Below, piece after piece: positions 32,383 to 43,764 of a DNA stretch of 64,000 nucleotides. The notes beneath the pieces are model-generated. The model ran no database searches, was not told the DNA's origin, and saw nothing but the letters and a program-made list of their open reading frames with translations. The first letter of the stretch is position 1. Every line of letters starts with the position of its first letter. The position numbers were made by a program, and so were the translations under genes. Origin of the DNA: Escherichia coli (lineage in GTDB: Bacteria; Pseudomonadota; Gammaproteobacteria; Enterobacterales; Enterobacteriaceae); assembly GCF_003018255.1 (NCBI RefSeq), contig NZ_CP027440.1; one strand, 5' to 3'.

Positions 32383-33636
32383 TTATGCGTAAACCGGGTA
32401 ACGTGCACAGATGTCGAGAACTTTACCTTTGATGCGCTCGATAACGGCTTCATCATTGATGCTGTCCAGCACGTCACACATCCAGCCAGCCAGTTCTTTC
32501 GCTTCTGCTTCTTTGAAGCCGCGACGCGTAATCGCCGGAGTACCCACGCGAATACCGGAGGTCACAAACGGGCTCTTCGGATCGTTCGGTACGCTGTTTT
32601 TGTTGACGGTGATGTTAGCACGGCCCAGAGCGGCGTCAGCTTCTTTACCGGTCAGGTTTTTATCAACCAGATCAACCAGGAACAGATGGTTATCAGTGCC
32701 GCCGGAAACCACTTTGTAGCCGCGTTCCAGGAACACTTCTACCATCGCTTTAGCGTTTTTAGCGACCTGCTGCTGGTAAGTTTTGAACTCAGGCTCCATC
32801 GCTTCTTTCAGAGCAACCGCTTTACCGGCGATTACGTGCATCAACGGACCACCCTGACCACCAGGGAAAACCGCAGAGTTCAGTTTTTTGTACAGCTCTT
32901 CGCTACCACCTTTCGCCAGGATCAGGCCGCCGCGCGGACCCGCCAGGGTTTTGTGAGTGGTGGTAGTAACAACGTGAGCATGAGGAACCGGGTTCGGGTA
33001 GACGCCAGCTGCAACCAGGCCCGCAACGTGCGCCATATCAACGAACAGGTAAGCACCGATGCTGTCAGCGATTTCACGCATTTTCGCCCAGTCCACCACG
33101 CCGGAATATGCAGAGAAGCCACCGATAATCATTTTCGGTTTGTGTTCTTTGGCTTGTTTTTCCAGATCGGCGTAGTCGATATGACCGCTAGCATCGATAC
33201 CGTAAGGAACGATGTTGTACAGTTTACCGGAGAAGTTAACCGGAGAACCGTGAGTCAGGTGACCGCCATGCGCCAGGTTCATACCCAGAACGGTATCACC
33301 TGGTTCCAGCAGCGCGGTGTACACCGCAAAGTTAGCCTGGGAGCCGGAGTGCGGCTGGACGTTAGCGTAGTCAGCACCGAACAGTTCTTTCGCACGATCG
33401 ATCGCCAGTTGTTCAACGATATCAACATACTCGCAACCGCCGTAGTAGCGTTTGCCCGGATAACCTTCAGCATATTTGTTGGTCAGCTGAGAACCCTGCG
33501 CCTGCATTACGCGCGGGCTGGTGTAGTTTTCGGAGGCGATCAGTTCGATGTGCTCTTCCTGACGTACTTTTTCCTGCTCCATAGCCTGCCACAGTTCGGC
33601 ATCATAATCGGCAATGTTCATTTCACGCTTTAACAT
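32383..33636 (-). CDS. glyA: serine hydroxymethyltransferase
   Basis: ORF track 32383..33642; start moved to [17 protein letters not shown]..., 417 aa; PLP-lysine motif [14 protein letters not shown]. Confidence 0.97.
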
Positions 33637-33914
33637 CCGCATCTCCTGACTCAGCTAACAATAAAATTTTTGGCCTTTATAGGCGGTCCTGTTGGACAAC
33701 GGCGAACAGTATAACCGAATCATTGTGTGATAACAGGTCTTGACAAAGGAATTTACGCAAACGATTACCTTCAGGCTACGCAAGGCTTTGGAGAATAAAG
33801 AGCTTGCAACCGGAAACGGATTTCTTTTCAGGTTTGTGATGCAAATTTTTCACTTCATCACATTCTTTCTGAAAAACACCAAAGAACCATTTACATTGCA
33901 GGGCTATTTTTTAT

Positions 33915-33937
33915 AAGATGCATTTGAGATACATCAA
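33915..33937. promoter_or_regulatory. NsrR operator overlapping the hmp promoter
   Basis: Inverted repeat aagatgcatttgagatacatcaa just upstream of the hmp Shine-Dalgarno and ATG; matches the NsrR site as I remember it. -35-like TTTACA and -10-like ATAAGA lie immediately upstream. Confidence 0.55.
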
Positions 33938-33964
33938 TTAAGATGCAAAAAAAAGGAAGACCAT

Positions 33965-35155
33965 ATGCTTGACGCTCAAACCATCGCTACAGTAAAAGCC
34001 ACCATCCCTTTACTGGTGGAAACGGGACCAAAGTTAACCGCCCATTTCTACGACCGTATGTTTACTCATAACCCAGAACTCAAAGAAATTTTTAACATGA
34101 GTAACCAGCGCAATGGCGATCAACGTGAAGCCCTGTTTAACGCTATTGCCGCCTACGCCAGTAATATTGAAAACCTGCCTGCGCTGCTGCCAGCGGTAGA
34201 AAAAATCGCGCAGAAGCACACCAGCTTCCAGATCAAACCGGAACAGTACAACATTGTCGGTGAACACCTGTTGGCGACGCTGGACGAAATGTTCAGCCCG
34301 GGCCAGGAAGTGCTGGACGCGTGGGGTAAAGCCTATGGCGTACTGGCTAATGTATTTATCAATCGCGAGGCGGAAATCTATAACGAAAACGCCAGCAAAG
34401 CCGGTGGCTGGGAAGGTACTCGCGATTTCCGCATTGTGGCTAAAACACCGCGCAGCGCGCTTATCACCAGCTTCGAACTGGAGCCGGTCGACGGTGGCGC
34501 AGTGGCAGAATACCGTCCGGGGCAATATCTCGGCGTCTGGCTGAAGCCGGAAGGTTTCCCGCATCAGGAAATTCGTCAGTACTCTTTGACTCGCAAACCG
34601 GATGGCAAAGGCTATCGTATTGCGGTGAAACGCGAAGAGGGTGGGCAGGTATCCAACTGGCTGCACAATCACGCCAATGTTGGCGATGTCGTGAAACTGG
34701 TCGCTCCAGCAGGTGATTTTTTTATGGCTGTCGCAGATGACACACCAGTGACGTTAATCTCTGCCGGTGTCGGTCAAACGCCAATGCTGGCAATGCTCGA
34801 CACACTGGCAAAAGCAGGCCACACAGCACAAGTGAACTGGTTCCATGCGGCAGAAAATGGCGATGTTCACGCCTTTGCTGATGAAGTTAAGGAACTGGGG
34901 CTGTCACTGCCGCGCTTTACCGCGCACACCTGGTATCGTCAGCCGAGCGAAGCCGATCGCGCTAAAGGTCAGTTTGATAGCGAAGGTCTGATGGATTTGA
35001 GCAAACTGGAAGGTGCGTTCAGCGATCCGACAATGCAGTTCTATCTCTGCGGCCCGGTTGGCTTCATGCAGTTTGCCGCGAAACAGTTAGTGGATCTGGG
35101 CGTGAAGCAGGAAAACATTCATTACGAATGCTTTGGCCCGCATAAGGTGCTGTGA
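33965..35155 (+). CDS. hmp: flavohemoglobin (nitric oxide dioxygenase)
   Basis: ORF track, 396 aa, [17 protein letters not shown]...; globin domain followed by FAD/NAD-binding reductase domain. Confidence 0.97.
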
Positions 35156-35598: not shown

Positions 35599-36933
35599 TC
35601 ATTCCTTGAAATCGTTTGCATCCAGCTCGTGTCGGGAAAGCAGTTTATAAAATTCTGTCCGGTTGCGCCCCGCCATTCTCGCCGCGTGGGTGACGTTGCC
35701 TTTGGTGATTTGCAGCAGCTTACGCAAATAGTTGAGTTCAAAATGATTACGTGCCTCAACAAAGGTTGGCAGCGCCGTGTTTTCGCCCTCCAGCGCCTGC
35801 TCTACTAATGCATCGCTAATCACCGGAGATGAGGTCAGCGCCACGCACTGTTCAATCACGTTGACCAACTGGCGTACATTACCCGGCCAGCTAGCGGTCA
35901 TCAGGCGTTTCATCGCATCGGTGGAGAACGCGCGGACAAACGGTTTATGTCGCTCTGCCGCCTGGCGCAACAGGTGATTTGCCAGTAGCGGAATGTCTTC
36001 TGTGCGCTCTGCCAGAGCCGGAATTTTCAGGCTGACAACGTTGAGGCGGTAATAGAGATCTTCACGGAATTCCCCGCGCGCCATCGCTTTTGGCAGGTCG
36101 CGGTGAGTGGCGGAAATAATCCGCACGTCGATATCAATATCGCGGTTACTGCCCAGCGGGCGCACTTTACGCTCCTGCAACACACGCAGCAGTTTGACCT
36201 GCAACGGTGCAGGCATATCGCCAATCTCATCGAGAAATAGCGTACCGCCTTCCGCCGCCTGGAATAAACCTTCGCGATTGCTGACAGCGCCAGTAAACGC
36301 GCCACGCGCATGACCAAACAGCTCCGACTCCAGCAATTGCTCGGGCAATGCACCACAGTTAATAGCAATAAATGGTTTGCTATTGCGCGGGCTGGCGTTG
36401 TGGATAGCCTGGGCGAAAATCTCTTTCCCGGTGCCGCTCTGACCGTTAATCAAAACGCTAACGTCTGATTGCGCCACCAGCCGCGCCTGTTCCAGCAAAC
36501 GCAGCATCAGCGGGCTGCGGGTGACAATCGCCTCGCGCCAGCGTTCATCGGTGGCTGGCGCGGATTGTTCCAGCGCATCGTCAATTGCCTGATATAGCGC
36601 GTCTTTATCGACAGGCTTGGTGAGGAAACTGAACACTCCCTGCTGTGTTGCAGCAACGGCATCGGGAATAGAACCATGTGCGGTAAGAATAATTACCGGC
36701 ATTCCCGGCTGCACTTTCTGGATTTCAGCAAACAGCTGCATACCATCCATTTCATCCATCCGCAGGTCGCTGATAACTAAATCTACTTTTTCGCGATTCA
36801 GTACCCGTAATCCTTCAGCACCACTTTCCGCCGTGACCACGCTGTAGCCTTCGCTGGTCAGGCGCAGGCCAAGCAGTTTCAGCAATCCCGGATCGTCATC
36901 GACCAGTAATAAATGCGCAGGTTTATGGCTCAT
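35599..36933 (-). CDS. glrR: sigma54-dependent response regulator GlrR
   Basis: ORF track 35599..37035; start moved to ATG at 36931-36933 ([14 protein letters not shown]...), 444 aa; receiver domain, AAA+ sigma54-interaction domain (GESGTGKE-like, GAFTGA), C-terminal HTH. Confidence 0.95.
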
Positions 36934-43748: not shown

Positions 43749-43764
43749 ACGAAACCGTTTGCGT
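43749..43764. promoter_or_regulatory. PurR operator (PUR box) upstream of purL
   Basis: acgaaaccgtttgcgt, a 16-bp near-palindrome matching the PurR box pattern ACGCAAAC-GTTTGCGT, about 80 bp upstream of the purL ATG. Confidence 0.6.

Follow-up and report, generated by a model that had tools for sequence, protein, structure and literature searches.

The closest described counterparts of the elements considered here are the NsrR operators of ytfE, hcp and ygbA (Rrf2 family) and the PUR boxes of the pur regulon, such as those of purL, purF and purC (LacI family). The former are 11-1-11 repeats with the half-site AAGATGCATTT and cover the core promoter of a gene responding to NO; the latter are 16-bp boxes with a central CG and the half-site ACGCAAAC, placed between the -35 and -10 hexamers. 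Both kinds of element have been described between the divergent genes glyA and hmp of Escherichia coli K-12, a region curated in the literature and in RegulonDB with NsrR, FNR and MetR acting at hmp, and PurR and MetR acting at glyA. An NsrR site at hmp that is conserved among enterobacteria was predicted by Rodionov et al. (2005), and an earlier NsrR ChIP-chip analysis in K-12 had also recovered the hmp promoter (PMC5320621). In strain CFT073 the site lies under a ChIP-seq peak; the summit of this peak is in the spacer between the two genes, and the start codon of hmp is 34 bp away (Mehta et al., 2015; PMC5320621). The orthologous operator of Salmonella Typhimurium hmp, AAGATGCATTTGATATACATCAT, occupies the same position as that of E. 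coli and has served in EMSA and modelling. For glyA, the PurR motif lies under a K-12 ChIP-chip peak that is stronger with adenine (Cho et al., 2011; PMC3159470), and the RegulonDB evidence paper gives the site as confirmed by footprint and ChIP (PMC3548332). These controls appeared in print from about 1990 to 2015, and finding them again has little weight as discovery. The main use of the present analysis is as a calibration, in which a reading made from the sequence alone (the sequence-only reading) located two operators with single-base accuracy.

The window, that is, the whole 64-kb stretch of DNA analyzed, comes from the E. coli chromosome. A query of 1 kb, centered on the spacer between the two genes, matched several complete genomes with 100% identity, and of 5426 complete genomes of E. 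coli all but one (5425) contain it. The flanking genes diverge, and are annotated in RefSeq as glyA, encoding serine hydroxymethyltransferase, and hmp (hmpA), encoding an NO-inducible flavohaemoprotein. The features that define the spacer are:

32383-33636, minus strand: glyA coding sequence (serine hydroxymethyltransferase), with its start ATG at 33636 according to RefSeq
33643-33647, minus strand: glyA Shine-Dalgarno sequence AGGAG, inside a 24-nt leader block (33637-33660)
33965-35155, plus strand: hmp coding sequence (flavohaemoglobin, NO dioxygenase), with its ATG at 33965, from the open reading frame list and the RefSeq annotation

The mechanically derived open reading frame of glyA has two additional codons at its 5' end, beginning from an ATG at 33642 (MRMLKRE...). 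We prefer 33636 as the glyA start because the AGGAG is correctly spaced only for this codon and leaves no spacing to the ATG at 33642. The RefSeq starts of glyA and hmp in K-12 MG1655 and in strain 7/2, which is 100% identical to the window here, are equivalent to 33636 and 33965. The spacer therefore spans 33637-33964 and measures 328 bp, and not the 322 bp that follows from the in-frame ATG at 33642 and had been given in the sequence-only reading. The K-12 spacer is the same locus; over 361 aligned bases the only differences are a SNP at 33728 and an A that the window has in addition in the run at 33947-33954, and the operator sequences are all identical. We conclude with high confidence that this is the divergent promoter region of E. 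coli glyA and hmp, with two control modules that are largely separate and a single activator common to both. This conclusion draws on sequence identity with published bound sites, on matrix scores and promoter positions, and on conservation across 109 species computed here; binding itself, and the responses to NO, purines and homocysteine, are taken from the literature.

To place the locus in its comparative context, one genome per species was scanned with a degenerate pattern for the hmp coding region, a search that is unbiased toward the spacer. This gave 120 loci, 108 of which have divergent glyA and hmp genes with a spacer of 291-392 bp and were retained; the resulting alignment holds 109 distinct spacers, with a median identity to the window of 72%. 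The 108 other Enterobacterales species have the NsrR and PurR boxes at the same distances, and also keep both hexamers of the hmp promoter (-35 and -10) and a pair of MetR-like blocks. The phylogenetic footprint resolves into discrete conserved blocks: the glyA leader with its Shine-Dalgarno sequence, a TATACT hexamer, 33731-33749, the PurR box, 33781-33792, the two MetR-like blocks, the hmp -35 and -10 hexamers and the NsrR operator. High conservation in parts of the spacer, together with a mechanical open reading frame of 58 codons at 33740-33916, could also be read as the mark of an encoded product, either this frame or a small RNA. We consider such a product barely credible as the source of the conserved blocks. 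The conservation is patchy, with blocks some 10-20 bp long; the stretches between them (33793-33817 and 33853-33885) are poorly conserved and carry indels that a coding frame could not tolerate, and the frame was rejected on these grounds. The length of the spacer also varies over the 291-392 bp range, an Rfam scan of 33400-34200 returned only a chance microRNA match (E = 0.57), and the glyA leader shows no conserved RNA structure (alignment fold energy -0.44). The discrete blocks are better read as the promoter and operator elements of the two divergent genes.

On the hmp side of the spacer these elements are:

33890-33895, plus strand: hmp -35 hexamer TTTACA, from a promoter scan; invariant in 108-109 of 109 species
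33914-33919, plus strand: hmp -10 hexamer TAAGAT, from a promoter scan, with an 18-bp spacer; each position conserved in 96-109 of 109 species
33915-33937, no strand assigned: NsrR operator, an 11-1-11 imperfect inverted repeat, at -12 to +11 of the hmp promoter
33924-33937, no strand assigned: FNR-like site (CRP/FNR family) TTGAGATACATCAA, matching TTGAT-N4-ATCAA at 9/10 positions, nested within the NsrR operator (right half), at -3 to +11
33927, plus strand: start of hmp transcription (A), with a leader of 38 nt; its position fits the -10 hexamer
33940-33950, plus strand: second NsrR half-site-like 11-mer, AAGATGCAAAA, in the hmp leader; a direct repeat of TAAGATGCA
33955-33959, plus strand: hmp Shine-Dalgarno sequence GGAAG, from sequence and conservation

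The transcription start was mapped experimentally, and is shown in Fig. S3 of Rodionov et al. (2005) as the A after CATTTG, which corresponds to 33927.

The 23 bases at 33915-33937 read aagatgcatttgagatacatcaa, as the sequence-only reading had them, and their reverse complement, TTGATGTATCTCAAATGCATCTT, is identical to the site listed for hmp by Mehta et al. (2015, Table 4). The operator was scored with a matrix built from the 25 sites of that table, symmetrised and with hmp left out. In this leave-one-out scan it reaches 17.92 bits and is the best match in the 64-kb window, with the runner-up at 12.6; the probability of such a score per position is 4e-7 against the composition of the window and 7.7e-6 against the AT-rich composition of the spacer. 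The core, GATGCAT-N5-ATACATC, fits the published gATGyAT-N5-ATrCATc at 14/14 specified positions. The operator overlaps both the TAAGAT hexamer and the mapped A33927, which agrees with its earlier placement over the hmp -10 and start region. It is an inverted repeat where one had been described, but an imperfect one: the 11-nt arms agree at 7/11 positions, and the ideal palindrome is matched at 18/22. Because of these imperfect arms it was missed by a repeat finder, which reported for this region only the TAAGATGCA direct repeat and a pair of A/T runs. Given the identity of 33915-33937 with the ChIP-seq site, NsrR would be expected to occupy it in this strain as well, and the proposal that NsrR represses hmp is supported.

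Comparison with related operators shows that this is a comparatively poor NsrR site. Scores of the training sites range from 12.2 to 32.2 bits with a median of 21.0, placing the E. coli hmp operator in the lower part; its degenerate right half, AGATACATCAA, sets it apart from the operators of ytfE, hcp and ygbA, and it scores 17.9 bits against 32 for ytfE. Each of the 109 orthologous spacers carries an NsrR site that, with 15.5 bits or more, outscores the weakest training site; in most of them its distance to the hmp ATG is 48-51 bp. The median of these orthologous sites is 27.0 bits, compared with 17.9 for E. coli. The majority enterobacterial operator, AAGATGCATTTAAAATACATCAT, scores about 28 bits, and the operator common to E. 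coli, E. albertii and E. whittamii lies about 10 bits under it. The G at 33928 alone costs about 7 bits relative to A, the base found in most species. The Salmonella Typhimurium operator differs from that of E. coli at two bases, with T for G33928 and T for A33937, and is the stronger NsrR match of the two with a similar FNR match. The E. coli operator is thus among the weakest of its family, which is a modest comparative addition to what was known of this site.

The FNR-like site nested in the operator raises the alternative that 33915-33937 is primarily an FNR operator whose resemblance to NsrR sites is incidental. The 9/10 match to TTGAT-N4-ATCAA speaks for this, as do the findings of Myers et al. 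(2013), whose FNR matrix predicted the site and who reported FNR-dependent expression of hmp; the same study saw no wild-type FNR ChIP-seq peak at hmp, yet an NsrR peak lies on the exact sequence of 33915-33937. The pattern itself is not clearly above chance, with five matches of at most one mismatch in the window against 2.25 expected, a count reached in 6 of 100 shuffles. The conserved bases of the 109 species track the NsrR consensus, AAGATGCATTT-N-AAATACATC, and not the bases that define an FNR site, which are rare (G33926 in 23 species and A33937 in 15). Just 11 of the 109 spacers, from Escherichia, one Salmonella and some Citrobacter, have a site with no more than one mismatch to the FNR consensus. 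We therefore regard a primary FNR operator as highly improbable and retain the assignment of 33915-33937 to NsrR. The confinement of the nested FNR-like site to Escherichia, Salmonella and some Citrobacter is a second modest comparative addition.

The FNR-like site lies wholly within the NsrR footprint, and we infer that the two proteins cannot both bind. Judging from this overlap, occlusion by NsrR would be a natural explanation for the missing FNR ChIP-seq peak at hmp. Across the alignment the NsrR score drops as FNR likeness rises (Spearman 0.60), although the species are non-independent and the two motifs conflict by construction. One tentative reading, which we think possible but rather doubtful, is that the ancestral enterobacterial hmp operator was strong and bound NsrR only, that an FNR site arose over its right half in Escherichia, Salmonella and Citrobacter through changes at 33926 and 33937, and that G33928 in Escherichia then weakened both matches; E. 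coli hmp would on this account be a deliberately leaky NsrR target at which NsrR keeps FNR off. If true, this would explain why a good predicted FNR site lacks a ChIP-seq peak, and the half-site at 33940-33950 and a length polymorphism in the leader (A7 or A8) could tune the promoter further. The weak E. coli NsrR operator and the lineage-restricted FNR site suggest a simple test of competition between the two repressors at hmp.

The half-site at 33940-33950 scores 7.7 bits with a half-site matrix and is given as a weak motif in Table 2 of Mehta et al. (2015; PMC5320621); in the 109-spacer alignment it shows no conservation outside Escherichia. The A-run at 33947-33954 in the hmp leader is polymorphic, with eight A residues in the window and seven in K-12. 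The exact 71-nt promoter and leader of the window, with A8, was found in 1417 of 5249 matching complete E. coli genomes (about 27%), and the remaining genomes mostly show one difference; the rows sampled from these were mostly 70-nt matches, which fits A7 as in K-12. Between the hmp -35 and -10 hexamers, the sequence GCAGGG at 33898-33903 is fairly well conserved (74-99 of 109 species), and may be the candidate NarP site that Rodionov et al. (2005) placed upstream of hmp in enterobacteria.

On the glyA side, the corresponding elements upstream of the leader are:

33708-33713, minus strand: inferred glyA -10 hexamer TATACT; five of six positions invariant across 109 species
33731-33736, minus strand: candidate glyA -35 hexamer CTGTTA, 17 bp from TATACT; a weak match, proposed from conservation
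33755-33770, minus strand: PurR operator (PUR box, LacI family), reading AGGTAATCGTTTGCGT in the glyA sense, with the inferred glyA start about 62 bp downstream

The 16 bases at 33755-33770 read acgcaaacgattacct, again as in the sequence-only reading, and their reverse complement, AGGTAATCGTTTGCGT, is identical to the glyA motif in Table 1 of Cho et al. (2011). With a matrix made from the 27 other motifs of that table, glyA being left out, the box scores 21.65 bits, above the validated-site median of 20.3, and has an exact tail probability of 2.8e-8 per position, or 1.8e-5 occurrences expected in the spacer. It ranks second of about 128,000 positions in the window, after the purL operator, which is a training site. 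Each of the two operators is accordingly the best non-training match to its own matrix in the 64 kb. The resemblance to a PurR box had been put at about 12 of 16 positions; the actual figures are 13/16 to the perfect palindrome ACGCAAACGTTTGCGT, or 12/14 at the specified positions of ACGNAAACGTTTGCNT, and the box has the central CG.

A chance resemblance with no regulatory role would be in keeping with the right half of the box, ATTACCT, which departs from TTTGCGT at three positions, and with its location upstream of the -35 hexamer instead of over the core promoter. The probability of the score argues strongly against chance, however, as does identity with a ChIP-chip motif whose peak strengthens with adenine, at a site in the confirmed class of RegulonDB. 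The nine left-half bases ACGCAAACG and a TT are, moreover, invariant in 109/109 species at a fixed distance from glyA, and in every species the box scores at least 14.7 bits, above the weakest validated site, and lies 121-152 bp from the glyA ATG. We consider coincidence extremely improbable and, for practical purposes, refuted; the reading of 33755-33770 as a bound PurR operator is supported by its identity with the published motif. Base-for-base agreement with ChIP-seq (NsrR) and ChIP-chip (PurR) data thus holds for both operators, which were mapped and published years ago, so that the sequence-only reading was correct in this respect and its finding an ordinary one.

The glyA box falls within the range of scores of validated pur-regulon sites but differs from them in two respects. 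Its promoter-distal half (AGGTAATC, glyA sense) is degenerate, and it lies upstream of the -35 hexamer, unlike the pur-regulon boxes between -35 and -10; glyA also stands outside the core purine pathway. In the data of Cho et al. (2011; PMC3159470), 14 of 32 PurR motifs lie between -10 and -35, and a box upstream of -35 is not the usual position for repression. Because of this position, repression of glyA is expected to be weak.

The weak -35 hexamer assigned to glyA is as expected of an activator-dependent promoter. A consensus scan had proposed another promoter, TTGTCA/AATGAT, which was set aside as the main one; its -10 hexamer is poorly conserved, compared with the near-invariant TATACT. 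Inside the spacer of the inferred glyA promoter, position 33728 is the site of the SNP that separates the window (T) from K-12 (C), and this alignment column is itself poorly conserved (C in 44 and T in 43; n = 109). Two of the conserved blocks match no regulator so far assigned. The block at 33731-33749 adjoins the PurR box and contains TTGACA on the plus strand (TTGTCA on the minus strand); that at 33781-33792 has the sequence CAAGGCTTTGG. The glyA leader at 33637-33660, GTTAGCTGAGTCAGGAGATGCGG on the sense strand, is near-invariant in 109 species, far beyond what a Shine-Dalgarno sequence needs. A literature search found no report of control of glyA by a small RNA; a nitrite-responsive RNA locus from a 2026 preprint belongs to Bacteroides and is irrelevant to glyA-hmp.

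Between the two promoters lie a further pair of conserved elements:

33818-33830, no strand assigned: MetR-like site on the glyA side, GGATTTCTTTTCA, matching TGAA-N5-TTCA at 6/8 positions; a conserved block
33840-33852, no strand assigned: MetR-like site on the hmp side, TGCAAATTTTTCA, matching TGAA-N5-TTCA at 7/8 positions, with the central T

The literature describes two sites for MetR (LysR type), with the consensus TGAAnnTnnTTCA, in the glyA-hmp spacer and acting on both genes, and these are the only element described there as common to both promoters. MetR sites typically come in pairs spaced by about two helical turns. The reported sites probably correspond to the blocks at 33818-33830 and 33840-33852, which are 22 bp apart and both conserved in 109 species. 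In the hmp-side block at least 104 of 109 species keep the half-sites TG and TTCA, and the glyA-side block is visible out to Yersinia in the alignment of Rodionov et al. (2005). The number of matches to the MetR consensus pattern in the window is not above that in shuffles, and the pattern alone cannot support these sites. By consensus counts, then, the FNR-like match (9/10) and the two MetR-like matches (7/8 and 6/8) are present in the spacer but without enrichment over shuffles. The sequence-only reading omits all three sites from its account of the region.

Taken together, these observations are consistent with the following arrangement. At hmp, a sigma-70 promoter (TTTACA, 18 bp, TAAGAT, start at A33927) is covered from -12 to +11 by the 23-bp NsrR operator, and NsrR carrying its iron-sulfur cluster would block RNA polymerase at the -10 and start region. 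Nitric oxide would damage the cluster, NsrR would leave, and the NO-detoxifying flavohaemoglobin would be made; FNR may add anaerobic repression of hmp from the nested site, only in the absence of NsrR. At glyA, PurR with hypoxanthine or guanine would bind the PUR box at about -62 relative to the inferred start, where its repression is probably weak and may act by interfering with upstream activation. The two MetR sites between the promoters would serve both, linking them to homocysteine. The view that nitrosative-stress and purine control stand back to back in this spacer holds insofar as both operators are supported, but they are 145 bp apart and belong to separate promoters, and are better described as neighbors than as an integrated switch.

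Two further matches to the PurR matrix were seen in the window. The top match to the PurR matrix, at 22.9 bits, is the purL operator ACGAAACCGTTTGCGT at 43749-43764, which is identical to its entry in Table 1 of Cho et al. (2011); the offset between the published coordinates of this motif and those of the window agrees with that of the glyA motif. A weaker PurR-like box, TTGAAATCGTTTGCAT, at 35606-35621 scores 12.3 bits, just over the weakest validated site, and is found within the last codons of glrR, 68-83 bp ahead of the glnB ATG. The glnB gene, for which control by PurR has been reported (He et al., 1993, cited in PMC3548332), was missed by the PurR ChIP-chip study (Cho et al., 2011; PMC3159470). 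With the glyA and purL boxes, the window may hold three PurR operators.
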